From positions 448,001 through 512,000 of the forward strand of contig OZ242351.1 of the NCBI GenBank assembly GCA_965208675.1: DNA of 64,000 nt, given 5' to 3'. The stretch comes from Candidatus Poribacteria bacterium (lineage in GTDB: Bacteria > Poribacteria > WGA-4E > PCPOR2b). This document shows, in pieces, positions 46,353 to 63,682 of the stretch (positions within the stretch are counted from its first letter, which is position 1; each line of letters begins with the position of its first letter). The notes beneath the pieces were generated by a model that saw only the letters and a list, made by a program, of their open reading frames with translations, did not search any database and was not told where the DNA came from. Made by a program: the position numbers and the translations under genes.

Positions 46353-49300
46353 ATGCCAAAAAAAACACAACTTTCCCCCTTGATGGAGCAATATAAGCGC
46401 CTGAAAAACCAGTATCGAGATTCGGTTCTGCTCTGCCGTGTAGGGGACTTCTATGAGGCGTTCTTCGAGGATGCGGAGCTAATCGCTCGCGAGTTGGAGA
46501 TCGTCCTGACTTCGCGAGACAAAGATAAAGCAACGCCGATGGCAGGAATTCCGCATCACGCGCTCGATTCATATCTTTACAAACTCGTCAAGGCGGGCAA
46601 CAAAGTTGCAATCTTAGAGCAAATTGAGGACGCGAAGAACGTACCCGCCGGAGAGCTTGTAAAACGGGATATCGTCCGTATTGTAACGCCCGGTACCTTA
46701 ACGGATCCAAAGGTGCTCGATCAACGGATGAACAACTATTTGGTTGCCGTCTGTATACGTGATGAAATCTACGGATTTGCGTCGGTCGATCTATCGACAG
46801 GTGAATTTGCGGTAACCGAATTACAAGATGACGAGAAACTATGGACAGAACTACATCGGCTTGCTCCCAAGGAACTTCTGCTTTCTGAGGTGTTTGATGA
46901 TGCAGAGATTTTGGAGCGGATAAGGGTCGATTTGAAAGCAGTTGTGAACACGCTGCCGGATTGGCGATTCGCGCTGGACACAACGAGATCGGAACTGCTG
47001 CAACATTTCAATACCCTCTCGCTAGACGGTTTTGGCTGCGAACATCTCCCCGCGGCAATATGTGCGGCGGGCGCGTTGATATATTATCTGCATGAGACCC
47101 AAAAACAAGAGGTAGAACACATCCTTTCCATTCATACCTACACGGTCTCTGACTTCATGATTTTGGACGTGGATACACAACGGAATTTGGAGTTGACGAC
47201 ATCTATCCGCGACGGCTCCGCTAAAGGCACACTCTTGGAAACAATAGACCAAACTGTGACACCGATGGGAGCGCGCAAGCTTCGCAGTTGCCTGTTACAA
47301 CCGCTGCTTCAACCGGACCAAATTATCGCTCGTTTGAACGCAGTCGAAGAATTGAAAAATCAGATTGGTACACAGGAGGAAATTCGTGATTTACTAAATA
47401 AAATCTACGACATGGAGCGGTTGATTTCGAGAATCAGTTTGGGGACAGCAAACGCCCGTGATCTGCTTGCGTTGAAGGACTCACTGTATTTGATTCCGGC
47501 GATTAAAGATCAGCTTGGGGATTGCGAGACATCGTTATTGCAGACCTTGAACGACACACTTGACCCTTTAAATCAATTAGCAACGCTGATCGAATCGGCG
47601 ATTCATCCCGAACCTCCCATAACATTGCGCGAAGGCGGATTAATCCGCGACGGTTATAGCGGTCAGTTAGACGAGTTGCGCGCCATCACAAGCAAAGGGA
47701 AGAGTTGGATTGCGGAACTTCAGCAATTGGAACGCGAGAAAACCGGCGTTACTTCGCTAAAAATCGGCTTCAATCAGGTCTTCGGTTACTACATCGAAGT
47801 CACAAAATCGAATCTCCACCTCGTTCCCGATGATTATATACGCAAGCAGACATTGACGAATGCAGAACGGTTCATTACCCCGGAGCTTAAAGAACGGGAA
47901 GCGCAAATCTTGAACGCGCAGGATCAGATTCAAGCGCTTGAGCATAGTCTCTTTCTTGAAATCCGCGCGCAAATTGCCCAAGAGACGGAGCGGATCCAGA
48001 AAACCGCGGCGGTGATTGGGATGATTGATGTGATCGCAAACCTCGCTTATATTGCGGCTAAACATGATTACGAGAAACCCATTATTGATGAGAGTGATGA
48101 AATTATTATTCGGAATGGACGCCACCCCGTAGTTGAACGGCTGTTCACGCAAGAGGGGTTTGTTCCTAACGACACTTCATTAAATTGCCGCGGCCATCAG
48201 ATGCACATTATCACGGGCCCCAATATGAGCGGCAAATGCGTTCGCAGTGACACGCTCGTGTTCACCGATGCCGGTCTTGTTCCAATTGCTTCTCTTCAAC
48301 CCGGCAAGGTTGAAATAGACAGCTTCGCCCCAGTGAATTACCGCGTAAAGGGGCTGAACGGAAACGCGCGTGCAACCCATTTCTACGCCGGCGGGCGGCG
48401 CCGAACCGTGCGTATCCGCACGAGATTGGGTTACGAATTGGAAGGCACGCCCGAACATCGAATTTGGGTGCGCCAGCAGTCCGGCGTGGAGGGTTGGAAA
48501 CCGCTGGGGAAAATTGAGGGTAGCGATGCTGTCGCGATCGATTGCCAGATTGATTTGTGGGGGGCTAACGATACACTACAATCGCCGCGCGCAGCTTATA
48601 TGGAATCTCAAGTAAACCGCATTGAAATGCCGCGAGACTCGTCAGCGGACTCGCTGCCCGCCCGCCTTACGCCGAATCTGGCTTATTTGGTGGGATTGCT
48701 GGTTGGCGGTAGTGTATCGACCGATGGAGACGCAGTATCACTGGAAACGAAGGACGCGTTTCTCGGGCGAGAATTTAGACGCATAATAGGTGCGGAGTTT
48801 GGATACAGTAGGAAGCCAACCTCCCAAATAAGGAATTCCAACAATCGCGGAGGTGATTTTCAGATTCGGCGTTTCATTGAAGCCTTGGGACTGGCGCATA
48901 CTGCTAATGAGCAGGTTCCGGCGGCTATTTTGGGCGCACCAAAGGCTGTCGTTGCTGCATTCCTGCAAGGGCTGTTTGACATAACTAGCGATGGTGATGC
49001 AAAAGAGGACATCACCCTGTTTACTCCATCGGATACTCTTGCAAAACAGGTGCATACGCTTCTGCTTAACTTCGGGATCTTGTCCGCGTTACAGGAGAAA
49101 AAAGCGAGTCGCGCTGGCAACTGGATTTACGGAATTTCTATTACCGATGCAGACGCATTGAGGTTTTTCCGGCAGATTGGATCTAGAAATCCGGACAAGC
49201 AGCGCCGCGCCAAACACATTCGATTCATGGGTTATCCCAGAGTCACCGACATGGAACACCGAGACGAACGATCATCAAGCGGCGAGGGTTACGTCTTCGA

Positions 49301-50177
49301 TTCAATCGCGGACATAACCCCCGGTTCGGCAGAGGTTTTCGATCTCTCTGTGGAAGAGAGCCACTCGTTTGTCGCCAACGGCTTCGTGAACCACAATTCG
49401 ACGTATCTGCGTCAGACGGCGCTCATTACGCTGTTTGCGCAGATGGGGAGTTTCGTGCCTGCATCGGCGGCGAAGATTGGGATTGTGGATCGGATATTCA
49501 CTCGAGTCGGGGCGTCAGATAACCTCGTGATGGGTCAAAGCACCTTCCTTGTCGAGATGAATGAAACCGCAAACATTTTGAACAATGCGACCTCGAAGAG
49601 TCTGATTATTCTCGACGAAATTGGGCGCGGTACCAGCACCTTCGACGGGTTGAGCATCGCATGGGCGGTGGCGGAGTACATTCTGGACAAGAAGAAGATT
49701 GGCGGCAAAACACTTTTTGCCACGCATTATCACGAACTCATCGAGTTGGCAGGCAAATACAAAAACGCGAAAAATTTCAACGTTGCTGTCCATGAAGATG
49801 GAGAGAAGATTACGTTCCTGCGGAAAGTCGTGGAGGGAGGAACCGACCAGAGCTACGGTATTCATGTGGCGCGTCTCGCGGGGTTGCCGCTGGCTGTAAT
49901 TGCGCGCGCACAACAGATTTTGGAGATTCTCGAACAGCACAACCTGAGCATTGAGGGCGAGGATCGAGGGCGCCTGCCGAAGGCAGCACCCAAGACGCCG
50001 CGTCCCCGACGCCGAATGTCGCAGTCCGCCTTTCAAGATGACTCGCTCCAACTCGCACTGTTCACCCCCAAAACTCACCCAATCGTTCAGCAACTTCAAG
50101 ACCTTGACCTCAATGAAATGACCCCTATGGGTGCATTGAACCTACTGTATCAATTGAAGGCGAAAGCGGACGAATAG
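46353..50177 (+). CDS. mutS: DNA mismatch repair protein MutS with an intein
   Basis: 'GDFYE.F..DA', GPNMSGK|STYLRQ, 'STFLVEM', 'LDEIGRGTST' and 'SYGIHVA'. Confidence 0.97.
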   Translation: MPKKTQLSPLMEQYKRLKNQYRDSVLLCRVGDFYEAFFEDAELIARELEIVLTSRDKDKATPMAGIPHHALDSYLYKLVKAGNKVAILEQIEDAKNVPAGELVKRDIVRIVTPGTLTDPKVLDQRMNNYLVAVCIRDEIYGFASVDLSTGEFAVTELQDDEKLWTELHRLAPKELLLSEVFDDAEILERIRVDLKAVVNTLPDWRFALDTTRSELLQHFNTLSLDGFGCEHLPAAICAAGALIYYLHETQKQEVEHILSIHTYTVSDFMILDVDTQRNLELTTSIRDGSAKGTLLETIDQTVTPMGARKLRSCLLQPLLQPDQIIARLNAVEELKNQIGTQEEIRDLLNKIYDMERLISRISLGTANARDLLALKDSLYLIPAIKDQLGDCETSLLQTLNDTLDPLNQLATLIESAIHPEPPITLREGGLIRDGYSGQLDELRAITSKGKSWIAELQQLEREKTGVTSLKIGFNQVFGYYIEVTKSNLHLVPDDYIRKQTLTNAERFITPELKEREAQILNAQDQIQALEHSLFLEIRAQIAQETERIQKTAAVIGMIDVIANLAYIAAKHDYEKPIIDESDEIIIRNGRHPVVERLFTQEGFVPNDTSLNCRGHQMHIITGPNMSGKCVRSDTLVFTDAGLVPIASLQPGKVEIDSFAPVNYRVKGLNGNARATHFYAGGRRRTVRIRTRLGYELEGTPEHRIWVRQQSGVEGWKPLGKIEGSDAVAIDCQIDLWGANDTLQSPRAAYMESQVNRIEMPRDSSADSLPARLTPNLAYLVGLLVGGSVSTDGDAVSLETKDAFLGREFRRIIGAEFGYSRKPTSQIRNSNNRGGDFQIRRFIEALGLAHTANEQVPAAILGAPKAVVAAFLQGLFDITSDGDAKEDITLFTPSDTLAKQVHTLLLNFGILSALQEKKASRAGNWIYGISITDADALRFFRQIGSRNPDKQRRAKHIRFMGYPRVTDMEHRDERSSSGEGYVFDSIADITPGSAEVFDLSVEESHSFVANGFVNHNSTYLRQTALITLFAQMGSFVPASAAKIGIVDRIFTRVGASDNLVMGQSTFLVEMNETANILNNATSKSLIILDEIGRGTSTFDGLSIAWAVAEYILDKKKIGGKTLFATHYHELIELAGKYKNAKNFNVAVHEDGEKITFLRKVVEGGTDQSYGIHVARLAGLPLAVIARAQQILEILEQHNLSIEGEDRGRLPKAAPKTPRPRRRMSQSAFQDDSLQLALFTPKTHPIVQQLQDLDLNEMTPMGALNLLYQLKAKADE
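48237..49397 (+). mobile_element. Intein (387 aa) with a degenerate LAGLIDADG homing endonuclease, inserted in the MutS Walker A motif
   Basis: Starts with Cys (CVRSDTLV), block B 'TPEH', ends 'VFDLSV...HSFVANGFVNHN', +1 residue Ser. Confidence 0.93.
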
Positions 50178-50228: not shown

Positions 50229-52893
50229 ATGGCACTGCATCCGGAATTCCCCGAATCTCCACATGCTTTAATTGACCCATCGGTGCGCTGGTTTCCAGCT
50301 GACGAATCGTTGCGTGACTCCCGTTACGAGAAACTCATCCCGCCGCTCGTCCATAAGGTTCGTGAAAAAGTCAAAGCCTGGCGGGACGGCGCCTACCGAG
50401 GAGCAAGAGAAACTAGCAAATCTCTTCTGAATTGGTGGTTCAACACACCTCATCTGATAGAAGATGCAGGCGGTGAAATCAGCGAGTTTCAGTATTACTT
50501 CGCGCAGCGAGAAGCGCTGGAAACTGTAATCTACCTATACGATGTCATCGGTGTGAAGGACAAATACGACCTCATGCGCTTCGACAGTTCCGGCGCAATC
50601 TCTACCGGGATGTTCGATGAAACTTGGCGGCGGTTCGTGCTGAAGATGGCAACAGGGACGGGCAAAACCAAAGTGATGAGCCTTGCAATCGCTTGGAGTT
50701 TCTTCCACAAGCTGTACGAACCCGACTCGGAACTCTCGCGCAACTTTTTGGTCATCGCACCAAATATTATTGTGCTTGACCGTATATATCACGATTTTCA
50801 GGGGCTTCGCGTATTCTTCGCGGATCCTGTGCTGCCCAACAACGGACTTGACGGTCGAAACTGGCGCGACGATTTTCAACTGACCCTGCATCGGCAGGAC
50901 GAGGTGCGCGCTACCCGCCCCACCGGCAACATCTTTTTGACCAATATCCACCGGGTCTATTCCAGCGACCAATCTCCGCCGTCACCCGATGACGACAACA
51001 CAATGGACTACTTCCTGGGCAGGCGGCCAACCGGCGCAACCACGGATTCAAAGGTAGACCTCGGCGATATCGTCCGGGAAGTTGACGAGCTGATGGTGCT
51101 GAACGATGAGGCGCATCATATCCACGACCCGAAACTGGCATGGTTCAAATCGATTGAGGATATTCACAACCGTCTATTGCAGAAAGACAGCGAATTGGCG
51201 TTACAATTAGATGTCACCGCAACGCCCAAGCACAACAACGGAGCGATTTTTGTCCAGACAGTGTCGGATTATCCGCTCGTGGAAGCCGTTTCGCAAGATG
51301 TGGTCAAACACCCGGTGCTTCCCAATGCGCCGAGCAGAGCCAAGCTTGTAGAGCGGCAGAGCGCCAAATACACCGAGAATTATGCCGACTATCTGGAACT
51401 GGGCGTTATTGAATGGCGAAAAGCGTATGCAGAGCATGAATAACTGGACAAGAAAGCCATCTTGTTTGTTATGACAGATGACACCCGGAACTGTGATGAA
51501 GTCGCCGACTATCTCGAAAACCGTTTTCCGGATTTGAAGGACGCCGTACTGGTGATTCACACGCAGAAAAACGGCGAAATTTCCGAAGCGGCATCTGGCA
51601 AGAAGAAGGAAGAATTAGAGAAGTTGCGGAAACAGGCGAACGAGATTGACTCGATGGCTAGCCCCTACAAGGCGATTGTCTCGGTCTTGATGCTCAAAGA
51701 GGGTTGGGATGTCAAGAACGTGACCACCATTGTTGGGCTGCGCGCCTACTCCGCCAAGAGCAACATATTGCCGGAACAGACATTGGGCCGCGGGCTGCGC
51801 CGCATGTACAGCGGTGAAGTTAATGAGTCCGTGAGCGTCATCGGCACTGAAGCCTTTATGGACTTCGTCGAGTCGATCCAAGCGGAGGGTGTGGAATTGG
51901 AACGCCGAGCCATGGGTGAGGGCACTGAACCGAAAATGCCGCTTGTGATAGAAGTCGATAATGACAACACTAGGAAGGACATTGATGCGCTAGATATCAA
52001 TATTCCAAAGCTAACAGGGCGAGTTTATCGAGAATACAAAAATCTAACTGAATTAGACGCGGCACGTTTCAACTTCACCCCTGTAACCTATCGGGAATTC
52101 AGCGAAGAGCAGCAGCGCGACATCGTGTTCAAGGACATGACATCGGGTGAGGTCACACACACCACACAGATGGATAGCGCCGGCGTTGCGGATTATCGAA
52201 GTGTGATTGGCTACTTCGCTCAGACCCTCATGAAAGATTTAAGGTTGGTCAGCGGTTATGACGCACTATATCCAACGGTCCGGGATTTTATTGAGAACCA
52301 CCTGTTCGGCGGCACCGTGCCGTTGGATTCTCCCAATACGTTGCGCAATCTGTCAGAGCTTACGGCATCAAAAACCGTTATCGAAACATTCAAGTGTGCA
52401 ATCAACGACCTCACAATCCAAGACAAGGGGGAGGCTCGGATTAGCGATACAATCAAGCTGCGGCATACGCGGCCATTTGTTGTCAAAGACCAACCCTATT
52501 TGATGCCGAAGAAATCTGTGTTCAACAGAATCATCGGCGATTTTCAATTGGAGCGCGACTTTGCAGTATTTCTGGAAAATTTCCGATGTAGTCTCCTTTT
52601 CCAAGAATTATTTCGCGGTAGGCTTCAAGCTTGATTACGTCAAGACCGACGGCGACATCGCCAACTACTACCCCGATTTTATCGTGAAGCTGGCGGACGG
52701 ACGAGTGATTGTCGTCGAGACCAAAGGTCGAGAGGATTTGGATGCCGCGCCCAAGATGCGCCGGCTGCGCCAGTGGTGCGAGGATGTCAACAGCGTTCAG
52801 GGAGAAGCCGTCTACGGCTGTGTCTACGTAGACGAAGAAGGCTTTCGGACATATCAACCTAAGACATTTCAGCAACTGCTGGATGGGTTCTAG
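50229..52893 (+). pseudogene. res: Type III restriction enzyme Res-like helicase-nuclease with two lesions
   Basis: MATGTGKT, DEAHH, 'EGWDV' and 'PDF.....VETKG'; in-frame TAA at 51441-51443 and a frameshift at ~52580. Confidence 0.87.
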
Positions 52894-54717: not shown

Positions 54718-54810
54718 CGTGATCAGTTGGAAACATCACGATTAGCAGATTTGGCTAGCGGTAGTCTTTCGTTTTTAACTTCAGTTGGACCTACGCAAGA
54801 AGTTCAAAAG

Positions 54811-54840
54811 TCCCCCTGATAAGGGGGATTTAGGGGGTTA
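54811..54840 (+). repeat. Solo C/G-tract palindromic repeat (TCCCCCTGATAAGGGGGATTTAGGGGGTTA)
   Basis: Same CCCCC-TGATAA-GGGGG-N-GGGGG-TTA architecture as the IRs inside mod. Confidence 0.85.
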
Positions 54841-54964
54841 AAAACACTGAAATAACGACTTTTCAATTCCAAATTTTCCTTTTTCTGCTCAATTATCAGG
54901 GTTTGCGGAGCGTTGAGTCGCAAACTCGAAATTTCCAAAAATTTTTACCCAAGGAGACTTACGC

Positions 54965-55432
54965 ATGAATTTAGAATCGTACATGGCTGAAAGAGTTGAC
55001 AACCAGGTTGAGAATTTTGACCAGCTTGCACGCCGTAACCAGAGAATATATAGTTTTCTGCGAATGGCCACGATTGCGTGCAACGTTCTCACCGCCTTTG
55101 CTATCGCGTTGACACTCGCTGCGCCCGCACGATACAAGATATATATGGGGCTGGGGGCGTTGGTCCTCTCAATGATAGTCCTTGCTACACACCAGATTCA
55201 AGAGTTCTACAAGTTCGGGTCGAAATGGGAAAAGTACCGAACGGTCGCAGAGCAGATAAAATCTGAAAAGTTCCTGTTTCTGAATGACGCAGGTACGTAT
55301 CGCGCAGGTGATACCGATTCAAAGAAACGCGCCTTCATTGAAAGCGTTGAAGGTATCATTCAGGGAACGGATAAGTCCTATTTTGCACTGATGATGGAAC
55401 CGGGCGAAGAACATGAAACACATTTACAATAG
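54965..55432 (+). CDS. SLATT/DUF4231-like two-TM effector
   Basis: 'Y...R...Q......A.RNQ..Y', two TM helices and 'W..YR..AE..K.EK..F'. Confidence 0.8.
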   Translation: MNLESYMAERVDNQVENFDQLARRNQRIYSFLRMATIACNVLTAFAIALTLAAPARYKIYMGLGALVLSMIVLATHQIQEFYKFGSKWEKYRTVAEQIKSEKFLFLNDAGTYRAGDTDSKKRAFIESVEGIIQGTDKSYFALMMEPGEEHETHLQ

Positions 55433-55448
55433 CGTATGAGATAAGCAT

Positions 55449-58076
55449 ATGCCACGACTAACCGAACAGGAACAGCAAGAGATTATCCGCTTCCTTGAGG
55501 CGGACAAACCGCTTCCCGACAAATACCGATTTCTACTGTTTGAGGACAAGCGCGAGGTGGAGTTAGTCTGGAACGGCAAGTCCAACACGGTCTGTAACAT
55601 CGTCCTCCCCTTTCAGTCGATTGAACTTGTCGATGAACCCCGCGCCGAAAAAACCTCCGACACGTCCTTGCAACTCGACCTCTTTGACGAGCGTGGACGC
55701 CAACGCAAGGGTTGGACGAACAAACTGATTTGGGGCGACAACAAGCTGATTCTGTCCTCGCTAAAGAATGGTCCCCTGCGCGAGGAGATTGAGGCGCAGG
55801 GCGCGCTCAAGTTAATTTACATCGATCCACCGTTTGACGTCGGCGCAGATTTCTCAATGGATATTGAAATTGGCGGCGATACCTTTACCAAGAAGCCGAA
55901 CATTCTCGAAGAGATAGCCTACCGCGACACTTGGGGAAAAGGTGCGGATTCTTTTATTTCCATGATTTATGAGCGGCTGATTCTAATGAGGGATTTACTA
56001 GCGGAGGACGGAAGCATTTATGTGCATTGCGATTGGCGGGTGAATAGTCTCATCCGCCTTGTTTTAGACGAAGTGTTTTCGACTCAGTTTTATAAGAATG
56101 AAATTCGATGGAAGAGACAGCCGCCACGTGGTGCTAAGGCCATCTCTAAGCAGTACGCTAGATCTTCAGACTCGATTTTATACTACACAAAACTACCTTC
56201 TGGAATATGGAATCGACAGTATAAAGGTTACAGCGAGAAGTATATCAAGACCAAATTCACACATACAGACGATGGCGGCCGCGTCTATCGCATTGATGCG
56301 ATTGGGGATTACTCTGAGAAATCAATTGCAAAATTTAGACAACAAGGCAAAATTTACGATTATCCTTCTGGAAAACTAGGACTGATAAGATACTTAGACG
56401 AAGCAAAAGGTGAAGTAGTAACGGATGTTTGGATTGATATAAACGAAGTCAATTCCCAAGCACTTGAAGGCACCGGTTACGCTACCCAAAAACCCGAAGC
56501 CCTACTTGAACGCATCATTAAAGCATCATCAAACGAAGGCTACCTCGTAGCGGATTTTTTCTGCGGCTCCGGCACCACCGCCGCTGTCGCCGAAAAGCTG
56601 GGACGAAAGTGGATTGCTACAGACCTCGGCAAGTTCGCCATCCATACCACACGTAAACGCATGATTGGCGTTCAGCGTCAATTGAAAGCCGATGGAATCG
56701 ACTACCGCGCATTTGAAATCCTCAACCTCGGCAAGTACGAGCGCCAACACTACATCGGCGTCAATCCCAACCTGCGTGAAGAAGAACAACAACGTCAAAT
56801 GAAACAGAAGGAGGAGGCGTTCATCGACCTCATCCTGCGCGCCTACGCCGCCGAGAAAACGGACGGTTATGCCGCTTTTCAAGGTGTGAAAGCCGGGCGG
56901 CTGGTGGCGGTGGGACCTGTCAATCTGCCCGTAACACGCTTGTTTATTGAGGAACTCATCTTGGAATGCCGCAAGCATCGAATCACGCGGGTAGATGTGC
57001 TCGGCTTTGAGTTCGAGATGGGGCTGTTCCCAAACCTGTTAGATGAGGCACGAAGCAAAGGCATTGACCTCCTGCCGAAATACATTCCCGCCGAGGTCTT
57101 CGACAAGCGTGCAGTAGAACGTAATCAAGTCGTATTCCACGATGTGGCGTTCATTGAAGTTAAGCCGATCATCTCCTACCCCCCTGATAAGGGGGGCAAG
57201 GGGGGTTATGTCCCTTACAATAAATCCCTAACCGAAAAAGCACGTGAAAACCGAGATAACCCAACCTCGGCAGAGCAGAAATTGTGGTACGAAGTGCTAC
57301 AAAACAAACGACTTGAAAATCTGAAATTCACGCGCCAGAAACCGCTAGATGAATATATTGTTGATTTTTATTGCGCCGAACTGATGCTTGCTATTGAGAT
57401 CGCCGGCGATACCCATGCAGGGCAAGAGCAATACGACAAACGCAGGACTGAAAACCTAAACAAACATGGCATTCAGGTAGTTCGATATACCAATACTGAG
57501 GTGCTGAATAATCTCGAAGGAGTGTATCACGATTTGCAAGAACGCATATCTACGAGAAAAGCCTCTAACCCCCCTCGCCCCCCTTATCAGGGGGGTTATG
57601 CAGCCTCGTCCGGTGGACTGCCAACCGTAGCGGTCGAATTGACTAATTTTTCCGTGTTTTACTCCCAAGACTCTATCGCCCACGCCGAGGAAACGCTGAA
57701 AATCAGGGGCAGTCGGGTCATTGTGGATAGGGGGCAAATCGTCAAAGTGAGCAAAGATGCAAACGGGATTGTTACACGCAAAGTATTGACACAACACTGG
57801 ACGGATTGGATCGATTATTGGTCGGTGGATTTTGACTTTGAGAGCAAACGCGAAATCATCCGCGTCCAACATCCTGAAACCGGGGAATCGGAGGAACAGT
57901 GGACGGGCGATTACATCTTTGAAAATGAGTGGCAGAGTTTCCGCACCAAGAAAGACCGATCATTAGAGCTAACCAGCGTCGCCCACGAATGCACCCCGGG
58001 ACGCCGCAAACTCGCCGTCAAGGTCGTGGATATTTTTGGGAATGATACGATGACGATTGTGGAGGTGTCGGTGTGA
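55449..58076 (+). CDS. mod: Type III-associated DNA methyltransferase (Mod, beta class) with an in-frame DUF559 insertion
   Basis: 'NKLIWGDN', IYIDPPF (motif IV), 'YATQKPE' and DFFCGSGTT (motif I); C-terminal '[10 protein letters not shown]'. Confidence 0.9.
57178..57596 (+). mobile_element. IR-flanked DUF559 (Vsr-like endonuclease) cassette inserted in frame in mod
   Basis: 31-bp IRs at 57178-57208 and 57566-57596 (30/31); encodes 'PYN..L...AR..R.NPT.AE..LW','F.RQ.P...YIVDFYC....L.IE..G..H','D..R...L...G..V.R.TN.EV'. Confidence 0.85.
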
Positions 58077-59629
58077 GAATCAGAGACATATACTTGACGG
58101 GTTTTAAGCGATTTACTGATTTGACAATTGAGGGTATTCCTGATACGGCGAAACTCGTTGTTTTAGTTGGTCCCAGTGGCAGCGGAAAATCATCTCTATT
58201 TGATGCTATAAATGCTTGGGGAAAAGATCATACATATAGCATCTATGACCCTGAATATTATAGGAAAGATGGACAACCAACGAATCGGGGTTCTCCGGAT
58301 TCGTTTAATAGTCTCGGCGTGAGTATAAATGCCGATGATTGCCCGTCAAATTTGGGGGAAGCTTGTTATATCCGATCGGCATATCGGCACACGCCAAAAT
58401 TCAGCGTTTCTACGATGGAAAAAATTGATGAAAGCCAATATTGGCGCCATGATGTTAATGCACGACTAAATTTTTCTTCGGGTGATTCTGAAGTGCAGAA
58501 CAATTACCAAAGAGTATATGGACGGATAATGGATGCAGTCTTTAACTCTCAAGTTCGTACTAATGAGGATATTAGGGAAGGAGTTATAGGCCAAGTTCGC
58601 GATTCTTTGCAATCTATTTTTCCCGACTTGCAGTTGCATTCTCTCGAAGATTCTGAAGGCAAAGGAACTTTCTATTTTGAGAAAGGAGCAGCTAAAAAAT
58701 ATGACTATGTCAATTTATCGGGAGGTGAGAAAGCGGCTTTTGATTTGCTTCTTGATTTTATTGTCAGGAAAGAAACTTACTCAAATGCGGTTATGTGTAT
58801 TGACGAACCAGAAGTACACATGGGATTGAGTGCTCAGGGCAAATTGCTCGAGGTCCTTTATAAACTGATACCTGAAAATTCGCAACTTTGGTTGGGAACT
58901 CACTCTATAGGAATTTTACGGGCATCGAAAAAAATCTTGGAAACAAATCCCGGCAAAGTCGCCTTATTGGATTTTTCCAGGCACGATTTTGACCAAAAGA
59001 CTAACATAGAGCCAATTACTAATCCTGACCGTAAATTTTGGGAATCTCTGCATGATAGTGTTCTTGACGATCTATCTGGCTTACTGGCACCGGAAAAAAT
59101 TATTGTGTGCGAATCAGGCCAAGGGAGTGACGGTTTTGATGCCCGTTGCTACAATGAAATTTTTGCTAAATATCACCCCGATGCACTGTTTGTTTCCGCC
59201 GGAGGAAAATCGGAATTAGATAAAATTATCCCTATACTTCAAACAGTCATACAAAAAGCCGATATTTTCGCGGTACGCGATCGAGATGATTTGCTTGATA
59301 GACGGCGTAATGAACTTATTCAGCAAGGCACACGTGTTTTGAACCGGACCAGCATAGAAGATTACCTGATTGATGACGAATTGCTGGAAATATTCGCCGA
59401 CGTCCATGAGTTATCTAAAAGCCAACAGAGGGAATTAAAAGGCATCAACCGAAAAAACGATTCGGCTAAGGCGAGGGCTGGGCAGATATATCAGAAAGTC
59501 AAATCGTACAAGTCAATTGTTGGTGAAACCAAAGAGGAATTTCTTTCGGATGTCCTTGCACCCTTGTTAAACCAAGAGTTAGCCGTTTATCAGGAATTGG
59601 AAGAAGATATTTTTGGAACCCAAAGTTGA
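58073..59629 (+). CDS. ABC-type (AAA_21/OLD-like) ATPase with a C-terminal TOPRIM-like domain
   Basis: [14 protein letters not shown] signature, IDEPE.H, 'GTHS'; C-terminal 'IVCE' and 'DRD'; GTG start overlaps the mod stop. Confidence 0.8.
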
Positions 59630-59722: not shown

Positions 59723-60112
59723 ATGTCAGCAGGTATTAGGATATCTATGTTTGAAGTCGTGGGTAGTCCACTTTGCGTTGCTTCTAGCGATGGGCAGAAG
59801 GTACACGATCGCATCGCTTCAGTTCTTAAAGCAGATAGAAATGTCGCTCTTTCATTTCACAATGTCACGACGCTCACCGCGGCTTTCTTGAACTCTGCAC
59901 TTGGTCAATTGTATGGGACATTCAGTGAAGGACAAATTCGTTCTCGGTTGAAGGTAGAGGACGTGGAGACAGACGATTTTGCGCTTTTAAAGCGCGTTGT
60001 TGACAATGCCAAAATGTACTTCAAGGATCCGCAGCGTTTCAATCAAGTGATTCGAGAGACATTGGGGAATGAAGACGATGAAGCATATAGCGATGTGAGA
60101 CGACAACACTAG
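59723..60112 (+). CDS. STAS-like (DUF4325-like) protein
   Basis: 'CVAS.DGQKV','V.LSF..V..LT.AFLN.A.GQLY'. Confidence 0.75.
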   Translation: MSAGIRISMFEVVGSPLCVASSDGQKVHDRIASVLKADRNVALSFHNVTTLTAAFLNSALGQLYGTFSEGQIRSRLKVEDVETDDFALLKRVVDNAKMYFKDPQRFNQVIRETLGNEDDEAYSDVRRQH

Positions 60113-62366: not shown

Positions 62367-63682
62367 TATAATTACCCCCAAAAACTAGACAGTGTCTTAA
62401 GGTGGAATTGTTGCTGTCAAAACGGCCATGTTATGAGCCATAATAAGGCTCAGCAATGCCAAGAATTGCGAAAGGAGTTTGTTTAACATGGCTCGTAGAA
62501 AACAGTACGATAATCGATTCAAAGCGCAGGTGGCGATTGAAGCCATTAAAAATGAACGCACCATGGCGCAGATTGCCAGTGACTACGAAGTCCACCCGAA
62601 TCAGGTCAGGCAGTGGAAAAGACAGATTCTGGAACAATCACCCCAGCTATTTGCGAACGGACACACGCAATCAACTTCCGACAACGACCGCCTTATAGCT
62701 GAACTCTACCGGCAAATCGGTCAGTTGAAGGTAGAACTAGACTGGCTTCAAAAAAAAACTCGAATGCTCCATTAGCACAGAAGCGGCGGCTTGTCAAGCA
62801 AGAGCGCGGTGCTCCATCGGTTTCGAGACAGTGCGAACTGTTAGGGTTGCCGCGCGCTTCGTATTATTATCAACCCGCAGCGGAAGAATCGCCGGAAAAC
62901 CTGCTTTATATGCGTCTGATTGATGAACAGTACATTAAAACGCCGTGCTACGGTGTCCCTCGAATGACGGACTGGCTATGTGATAATGGCCACGCTGTCA
63001 ACCGGAAACGGATTGCTCGGTTGATGCGAAAGATGGACTTAGTTGCCATCTATCCCAAGCCCCGTCTCTCCAAGCACGGCAGGCCGTCGAAAAAGTATGC
63101 TTATCTACTGAAGGATTCAATTATCACTCGACCGGACCAGGTATGGGCAACTGATATCACCTATATCCGTTTGAACACCGGCTTTGTGTATCTAGTGGCG
63201 ATTATGGATTGGTACTCTCGATATGTGTTATCATGGGAATTGTCAAATACACTAGACGTTTACTTTTGTCTATCGGCACTGGAACGGGCATTGAGTTGTT
63301 CTAGCCCTTTGATATTCAATAGCGACCAGGGCGCGCAGTTCACGTCAGATGCCTTTACGACTCGGCTTGAATCGGCTAACATTGCCATCAGTTGGACTGG
63401 TGCTGGCAGCGTGTTTGACAACATTTTAATTGAGCGGCTCTGGCGGACCGTCAAGTATGAACATGTGTATCTTCACGCTTATGACTCAGTTCACGCGGTT
63501 TGGTGTGGCTTGAACAACTATTTCAAGTTTTATAATGAGGAGCGGCTTCATACGTCGCTCAATACTAGAACACCTCATGAGGTGTATTTTCAAAAATCCT
63601 AGGTGTTGAAGCATAGCCGGATTGTCTAGCAATTACACCTTAATAGACGAGCATTACTGTCTAAACATTGGGGGTAAGTAAA
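62367..63682 (+). mobile_element. IS3-family insertion sequence
   Basis: Imperfect TIRs TTACCCCCAA..TAGACAGT...TTAAGGTG.AATTG at both ends; orfA/orfB; ends approximate. Confidence 0.85.
62488..63602 (+). CDS. IS3 transposase OrfAB, expressed via a -1 frameshift at A9 (62750-62758)
   Basis: OrfA HTH 62488-62775; the -1 frame stays open into 'SVSRQCELLG'; DDE motifs 'WATDITY', 'NSDQGAQF' and 'IERLWR..KYE'. Confidence 0.92.

Follow-up and report, generated by a model that had tools for sequence, protein, structure and literature searches.

A nuclease domain within a methyltransferase gene

The locus examined here lies in a stretch of 64,000 nucleotides (referred to below as the window) from contig OZ242351.1 of a Candidatus Poribacteria bacterium, whose genome is a single contig of 4.89 Mb with 49% G+C. 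One open reading frame (ORF) on the forward (+) strand, 55449..58076, encodes a type III DNA methyltransferase, Mod, of 875 aa, and carries within it a block, here called the cassette, that encodes a DUF559 nuclease domain and is bounded by inverted repeats. Mod is identified by the Pfam family N6_N4_Mtase (PF01555; residues 121-400, E 1.4e-39) and by the PADLOC model MTase_III (residues 37-574, E 9.7e-107), and its translation contains the strings DPPF and FCGSG, which we take to be both methyltransferase motifs of Mod. The nuclease domain, of the Vsr-fold PD-(D/E)XK type, matches PF04480 over Mod residues 593-700 (57225..57548, +) with E 1.4e-30 and 105.8 bits, against a cut-off of 20.6, covers positions 2-108 of the 109 in the profile, and also matches PDB entry 3HRL (E 1.4e-15). 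The single further Pfam family in Mod at E ≤ 0.01, MTES_1575, is related to DUF559. An earlier note on this DNA had described a DUF559/Vsr-like domain of about 120 aa in frame within Mod; the ORF, Pfam and PADLOC confirm the domain and its frame, and comparison with an allele lacking the cassette (P0069, described below) corrects the length of the insert to 140 codons, or 420 nt (57179-57598 or an equivalent register).

The left junction falls in the TAC codon of Tyr577 (57177..57179, +), and Tyr recurs at the right junction, encoded by TAT (57597-57599). Such a repeated Tyr would be in keeping with duplication of TA or T where the cassette inserted, as judged against an empty allele that is available as protein only. 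A 12-nt direct repeat is also present at the insert, its copies spaced 390 nt apart. Logan contigs from sequencing run X16, covering 56700-57206 and 57181-57935, match both junctions without a difference, so the insert is not an artefact of a single assembly, X16 being possibly the source sample of the window genome. An AlphaFold2 model of the whole 875-aa Mod was of low quality (mean predicted local distance difference test score, pLDDT, 57; predicted template modelling score, pTM, 0.36) and was used for its secondary structure alone; in this low-confidence model, the insert lies between strands at residues 565-576 and 726-737, with linkers (579-590 and 711-723) that score below 50. The cassette has landed in frame in a permissive loop between two predicted β-strands of Mod, and the host protein carries an extra domain.

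An in-frame nuclease insert in a conserved protein invites the explanation that it is an intein or other splicing element, removed after translation, and a true intein does lie in the neighbouring mutS, which, as a positive contrast to Mod, matches the families Intein_splicing and LAGLIDADG_3. The block in Mod, however, begins with Pro, ends in ...QGGY before an Ala and lacks a terminal His-Asn, and Pfam finds no intein/Hint or transposase family in Mod; its ends, moreover, are DNA motifs whose reading frame differs from copy to copy. We regard splicing of this block as exceedingly improbable. Readings of the insert as a DDE or HUH transposase were likewise rejected, as Pfam yields only the three families named above. 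The earlier observation that intein motifs and such transposases are missing is upheld by Pfam and by inspection of the residues.

Inverted three-run motifs at the cassette ends

The left end of the cassette (57178..57208, +) has the form C6-TGATAA-G6-CAA-G6 and is translated as PPDKGGKGG, and the right end (57566..57596, +) is an inverted copy, C6-TCG-C6-TTATCA-G6, also translated without a stop. These arms are 31 nt each, 97% complementary (one mismatch) and 357 nt apart. The earlier note had correctly reported the 31-bp inverted repeats, their single mismatch and their translation without a stop, and had called each arm a C6-TGATAA-G6 hairpin; the hairpin is indeed present (-8.5 kcal/mol with DNA folding parameters, for the hairpin part only), but the arm contains a third run, CAA-G6, giving the layout C6, loop of 6, G6, spacer of 3, G6. 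When up to three mismatches are allowed, the 18-mer core has five matches at three sites in the window, compared with a mean of 0.01 in shuffled sequence, and none of 100 shuffles reached five. A class II intrastrand triplex motif consists of a C-stem, a loop of 3-6, a G-stem, a loop of 3 and a second G-stem, and the ITxF search takes stems of 6-15, according to the available text of Holder et al. (2015; PMC4666352). To call the arms three-run, triplex-type motifs is more accurate than to call them plain hairpins, and the cassette ends are predicted, from their run pattern, to be able to fold as hairpins or as intrastrand triplexes.

These motifs are constrained at the level of nucleotides. 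Among 32 related loci, 26 have the left motif at a constant distance ahead of the DUF559 core, compared with 37 of 4822 random windows of those loci; after the core, the right motif is present in half form in 25 (125 of 4822 random windows) and in full form in 22. In a comparison of 24 loci, all less than 90% identical, the commonest Gly or Pro codon has a share of 0.87-0.94 in the motif versus 0.33-0.62 at conserved core positions, and the preferred Lys codon is AAG in the motif and AAA in the core. Because the motif nucleotides are conserved even though synonymous sites of the nuclease core are saturated (dS, synonymous divergence), the ends are DNA (or RNA) signals and more than flexible linkers. 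They are translated in differing frames among cassette copies, and in the five loci mapped the left-type motif is almost confined to the cassette's own left end.

In two Mod loci (L021 and L024), the left motif has lost one base in one of its C6 or G6 runs, which shifts the frame and breaks Mod; in L024 the frameshift turns the TGA of the loop into an in-frame stop. The homopolymer runs make the host gene fragile.

Filled, empty and scar alleles of Mod

Of 8000 Mod homologues that were scored, the best 120 were compared for the presence of the cassette. In 39 of these, FIEVKPxx and xVAVELTDF are separated by a block longer than 90 residues; the other 81 lack it, and their unfilled loops have 3 residues (e.g. 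KKN) or 9 (e.g. KPGKKGTPP); alleles lacking the insert, which the earlier note had suggested seeking by alignment, are the majority of this set. Mod alleles are mosaic, in that residues ~185-345 are 25-60% identical between alleles that are 90-98% identical elsewhere. This target-recognition region (window ~56000-56480) has been swapped between the alleles P0001/P0003 and P0034/P0069/P0087, and whole-gene Mod trees are therefore misleading. With FastTree, which was used for both Mod and cassette trees, the whole alignment gave 8 changes of filled or unfilled state; with the target-recognition region removed there were 18, gains and losses counted alike, and at least 9 of these are required by branches whose local support is 95 or higher. 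Shuffling raised the count to a mean of 33, and 0 of 500 shuffles were as low as 18.

The most informative alleles are the five that share a well-supported clade of 10 rows with the window Mod in the tree without the target-recognition region; outside the loop, with target-recognition columns included, they are 78-96% identical to it. Two are filled: P0034, with junctions as in the window (loop SY...YATSSGGLP), and P0242 (SY...NAPAARP). P0069 is unfilled and represents an exact empty site, equivalent to the window sequence minus 140 residues. Loops of the HAPNNSSGLP type occur in other relatives, so the P0069 loop is an ordinary variant and no remnant of a cassette. The remaining two carry scars, reading SYPPDK-K-SSGGRP in P0003 and SYPPDK-STQ-GGLP in P0087. 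In addition, a solo motif stands alone in the loop in 3 of 72 environmental Mod alleles with a locatable loop (from 80 loci) and in P0119; in these four (L164, L177, L183 and P0119) it is of a different kind, C6-N6-C6-loop-G6-N5-G5, is read as TPLSSPLSKGGARG and takes the place of the 3-residue KKN loop. The cassette comes and goes in this loop of Mod. The proposal of a discrete cassette is borne out by the same block, with the same ends, being present or absent in one loop of near-identical alleles.

Metagenomes and related genomes were compared as well. Contigs from sponge metagenomes were aligned over window positions 56700-58100, and stretches that lacked cover were left uninterpreted. A contig from run X3 is identical to the window over 57002-57191 and resumes at 57627 with 24 other letters between, and so has no cassette. 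In a contig from X4, 57191 is joined to 57605 via AA, corresponding to the P0003 scar. In a contig from X16, from an abundant and more distant organism, 57210 is followed by 57614, which leaves the whole left motif and nothing of the rest. A metagenome scan with P0069 returned environmental Mods of 59-81% identity only, and no DNA of the exact empty allele. Of 60 related genomes, 19 contain an orthologous Mod (E < 1e-100) at a total of 21 loci, and the cassette is absent from all 16 loci at which the loop could be located by motif search (5 of the 21 could not be located); decayed motif relics remain in 2 of these 16 (L117 and L119). Close relatives of the cassette (≥75% identity) occur in only 6 of the 60 genomes (G012, G014, G015, G018, G024 and G027). 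The last of these has four DUF559 cassettes in tandem within 2.6 kb (G027:C1:276371-278928; L084, L098, L100 and L102), three of them intact and 79% identical to the window copy and one with two stop codons.

Relatives of the cassette in other genes and spacers

While Mod is the host at the window locus, the cassette also occupies unrelated genes and intergenic spacers. Small proteins matching it at E ≤ 1e-3 number 558, and the best 120 of these are 60-84% identical to it, 92 of the 120 having the left-motif peptide after unrelated leaders. In species-representative genomes, 138 stretches encode relatives of the cassette; the closest are in Candidatus Poribacteria records, and further ones are in records of Binatia, Gammaproteobacteria, Desulfonema, Brocadiaceae and Nitrospinota. 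The 33 closest loci comprise 9 copies in frame inside Mod, 18 free-standing copies, the 2 copies in frame-broken Mod described above, and 4 left unclassified (L016, L031, L032 and L034). At least 8 gene contexts are represented among the 18 free-standing copies. Within one operon the cassette occupies different spacers: in L007 it separates F4 from F5, and in L010 and L011 it separates F2 from F4, L010 having two solo motifs rather than a cassette between F4 and F5. Tandem arrays of the motif flank many cassettes. The search for DUF559 genes with these motifs at unrelated loci, which the earlier note had called for, thus found them both free-standing and in other proteins.

Among 99 longer proteins that match at E ≤ 1e-20, 62 have PF01555 and 11 have another host family. 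In the cassette-bearing Mod (PF01555) proteins the insert is always at the same loop where examined. Six longer proteins inspected in full have in-frame inserts with motif-coded flanks; their hosts are, we presume, RNase HII, IspG, LeuRS, two HsdS and a type IIG enzyme, and their inserts are more distant relatives than the free-standing 60-84% set. In a tree of the cassette core, Mod-embedded copies fall on both sides of a well-supported split and are mixed with free-standing copies. The window copy groups with Mod-embedded copies, next to a free-standing group with an MKHK leader, whose sequences match free-standing loci of Poribacteria records.

Selection on the nuclease and state of the window copy

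The nuclease protein is under purifying selection. The ratio of nonsynonymous to synonymous substitution rates (dN/dS) in the core is 0.04-0.17 between the window copy and seven relatives; for the 20 pairs, of 105, with a computable dS below 3, the median is 0.08. Only two residues of the window copy break with otherwise conserved columns, K603D and D652A. At the latter, a GCC codon (57402..57404, +) encodes Ala652 in place of the conserved Asp of E-x-D-G, a motif presumed to be the active site, and the window reads IEIAGD. This Ala (D76A in the locus comparison) occurs in the window copy only, with Asp in 29 of 30 related loci and at the equivalent position in 3HRL; E-x-D-G is kept in 38 of 39 Mod-embedded copies, the window copy being the exception, and in 113 of 120 small relatives. 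Neighbouring acidic residues are substituted in four other loci, which is compatible with frequent decay. On the assumption that the lost Asp is catalytic, the window copy is probably dead as an enzyme. It has most likely become an inert passenger headed for decay, with the scar alleles of close relatives representing the end state.

Strong purifying selection would also be expected of a domesticated domain, that is, a DUF559 domain working for Mod, whether in Vsr-like nick repair at methylated bases or as a restriction nuclease arm, with the motifs as linkers. The retention of E-x-D-G in nearly all Mod-embedded copies agrees with this, as does the finding that 62 of the 99 longer cassette proteins are Mod, with the same loop used where examined; Vsr itself is described as acting beside a methyltransferase in E. 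coli in the accessible part of PMC3424549. A domain serving Mod, however, would not be expected free-standing or in unrelated enzymes, where the cassette is also found, and linkers need no fixed codons. Among the nearest Mod alleles are an exact empty site and two scars, all 16 locatable orthologous loops in relatives are without the cassette, and in the window the conserved Asp has been lost with Mod intact. Taken against these points, domestication appears unlikely.

Three-run motifs across the genome and its relatives

The host genome contains 28 C-G-G three-run motifs, versus 0 for a reversed-order control; 23 lie outside long open frames and 26 lie beyond the two cassette arms. Those with the TGATAA loop belong to two families of ~125 bp, A and B, with 9 copies each, which resemble MITEs (miniature transposable elements with inverted repeats) in having terminal inverted repeats of their own, here around a central C-G-G motif. 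One is in the window: an intergenic solo motif, C5-TGATAA-G5-ATTTA-G5 (54812..54837, +), within a family B unit (54786-54905) that precedes a SLATT-like gene. The family B motif type is the usual right end of related cassettes. The earlier suggestion that the cassette seeds the genome with solo repeats is not supported, as the solo copies here sit in MITE-like units of their own. The genome has one strong DUF559 match only. Across the 60 relatives, the exact 16-mer of the motif has 0-148 copies per genome and the control has 0 everywhere. Within genus g5, whose members are not independent samples, 19 of 20 genomes contain the motif (4-148 copies) and only 6 contain a close cassette. A solo motif can also be found in frame within a gene: in the host genome one is read as TPLIRGDRGV in a secreted protein of 896 aa whose C-terminal tail is of sorting type (L214 2315-2341; G000:C1:3824114-3824140).

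Unstable three-run motifs might recombine by themselves, and a DUF559 gene caught between two of them would then be a passive passenger with no activity of its own. Genomes that are rich in the motif and have no strong DUF559, solo motifs alone in the Mod loop (3 of 72 environmental alleles and P0119), and the tandem motif arrays beside many cassettes are all consistent with this, and triplex motifs have been tied to local rearrangement in E. coli (Holder et al., PMC4666352, in the text available). A trapped gene would not, however, be expected to remain intact and conserved across contexts and phyla, as this nuclease ORF has, and the near-exclusive association of the left-type motif with the cassette's left end argues for a specific unit of gene and motif over random trapping. 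We consider a passive role for the nuclease improbable.

A candidate mobile cassette

The reading that we favour, and hold to be probable, is that the block at 57178-57596 is an evolutionarily mobile, non-splicing, selfish DUF559 cassette with inverted three-run ends. In the mechanism that we propose, the nuclease would recognise and nick the folded motif, and repair would copy the cassette into sites that have a solo motif or into a homologous empty allele, in a homing-like gene conversion. In-frame or intergenic landings alone would survive.

A number of points weigh against this proposal. No movement of the cassette was observed, and its recurrence at one Mod loop across phyla could reflect whole-allele transfer or recombination without nuclease action. 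The counts of state changes in the Mod trees cannot tell gain from loss, and in the cassette-core tree, which is based on 107 columns, only 2 of 12 context changes are forced by well-supported branches. P0069 is known as protein only, which makes the target duplication a putative one, and the metagenome runs were compared as contigs, in which rare variants are hidden. Purifying selection fits a host-useful domain equally well, and the copy in the window has probably lost its activity. Finally, the motif and the gene do not keep company across relatives: G007 (103 copies), G013 (148) and G022 (105) are rich in motifs and have no strong DUF559, and a strong DUF559 is accompanied by 0-1 motifs in G009, G044 and G047. 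Since motif counts do not follow the presence of DUF559, a strict dependence of the kind seen between repetitive extragenic palindromic (REP) sequences and REP-associated tyrosine transposases (RAYTs) is weakened. The mismatch is compatible with relic repeats, with other motif types belonging to other DUF559 subfamilies, or with repeats that spread by themselves.

If the cassette moves by means of its own nuclease, it would represent a new lifestyle for selfish DNA in genes, that of a tolerated extra domain that is neither spliced out nor disruptive. Because one host gene, itself well understood, is available in filled, empty, scar and solo-motif form, the boundaries and the decay of the element can be read directly, and the position in a loop allows the effect of a 140-residue parasitic insert on the Mod enzyme to be measured. 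There is also a consequence for annotation, as a 'Mod-DUF559 fusion' and Pro/Gly-rich stretches such as PPDKGGKGG and PPKSPLSGG are best taken as translated repeat DNA and not as native features.

Comparison with known systems

A literature search found no paper on a unit of DUF559 plus motif and, among the DUF559 titles listed, none concerned with repeats or mobility, most subscription journals lying outside that search. The layout is most reminiscent of REP/RAYT units, to which the earlier note had likened it: a single-copy nuclease-type gene lies between inverted folded repeats that are also dispersed without the gene (PMC3116915 and PMC3337134, as far as their available text goes). The likeness holds for the layout and not for the enzyme or the genomic distribution. 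The cassette enzyme is a Vsr-fold DUF559 protein and a RAYT is an HUH tyrosine (IS200/IS605-like) transposase; the cassette ends are three-run motifs and a REP is a simple palindrome. The cassette is, in addition, translated inside host proteins, and motif abundance in the 60 relatives does not track the gene.

The ends themselves have their closest parallel in the BoxC, PIT and TM_ECO repeats, since the run order of the arms meets the class II definition given above, and those repeats are often inverted pairs as well (Holder et al., PMC4666352, in the portion available). The stems of the cassette are 6-nt homopolymers, unlike the 9-nt stems of CCCTCNCCC type in TM_ECO described there, and the TM_ECO consensus, CCCTCNCCC N3-6 GGGNGAGGG N3 GGGNGAGGG, has 0 matches on both strands of the host genome. 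TM_ECO is also reported, in the same available text (Holder et al., PMC4666352), to be always intergenic, with no transposase or integrase nearby, whereas the motifs here delimit a nuclease gene within an ORF. E. coli K-12 has 1 exact match to TM_ECO beside a DUF559 gene, ycjD, ~170 nt downstream of it. A partial duplicate of the 3' end of ycjD lies between the two (L133 5240-5420), where a degenerate C/G hairpin overlaps the stop codon, the stop TGA being in its loop.

A broader extension of our proposal is that the orphan C-G-G triplex repeats (BoxC/PIT/TM) of bacteria at large have their missing partner enzymes in the DUF559 nucleases, which would recognise the folded motif, with copying from motif to motif, solo motifs as landing pads and survival as an unspliced domain. 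We put this forward tentatively and consider it somewhat doubtful. If true, it would define a class of mobile element that has no transposase, intron or intein. If the cassette moves by its own nuclease, it would provide a candidate enzyme for triplex-type repeats, which have been known since the 1990s without a function or a mobility gene, at least in the available text of PMC4666352.

Homing endonucleases offer a third parallel, and the clade of Vsr and DUF559 is described in a survey of PD-(D/E)XK nucleases as including a group I intron homing endonuclease, PDB 3r3p (PMC3424549, in its accessible part). As with homing genes, a single site in a conserved host gene either has the nuclease gene or lacks it, an intact empty allele being available; the filled, mutated and scar alleles display a cycle of invasion, decay and loss; and filled and empty alleles have different flanking residues, the outcome expected of co-conversion. 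Unlike them, the cassette has no intron or intein and stays in the protein, has folded terminal motifs of its own, and is found at many unrelated sites, beyond the reach of an enzyme with a single target. Persistence of foldable repeats in ORFs by means of an open frame is shared with the Rickettsia palindromic elements, which Ogata et al. reportedly described in 2000 as in-frame palindromic repeats in protein genes and which are said to encode no protein; the solo motifs in the Mod loop and in the 896-aa protein are of this kind, and the difference is that the unit described here carries a nuclease domain. The cassette differs from a MITE, which families A and B do resemble, in encoding a 108-residue domain and in being single-copy in the genome.

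Neighbouring genes in the window

Some neighbours of Mod are of defence type. Just upstream of it is one of these, the DUF4231/SLATT-like gene mentioned above (54965-55432). Further upstream, the type III restriction subunit gene, res (50229-52893, +), is in three pieces: a ResIII helicase part (50229-51443, +), a continuation beyond a stop in the same frame (51462-52634, +) and a TnsA-like nuclease end that is shifted in frame (52561-52893, +). The gene in three pieces looks like a pseudogene, and Mod may therefore be orphaned. Downstream, 58073-59629 encodes another, an AriA/AriB-like ATPase (PADLOC, E 2.6e-32), and is followed by a DUF4325 STAS-like gene (59723-60112). The IS3-type genes at 62479-63602 were considered and set aside as unrelated, being 5 kb from the cassette. 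The intein of mutS (46353-50177, +; 1274 aa) is a canonical one that includes a LAGLIDADG endonuclease and separates MutS domains III/IV from V, so that the same window holds one nuclease insert that splices, in mutS, and one that does not, in Mod.

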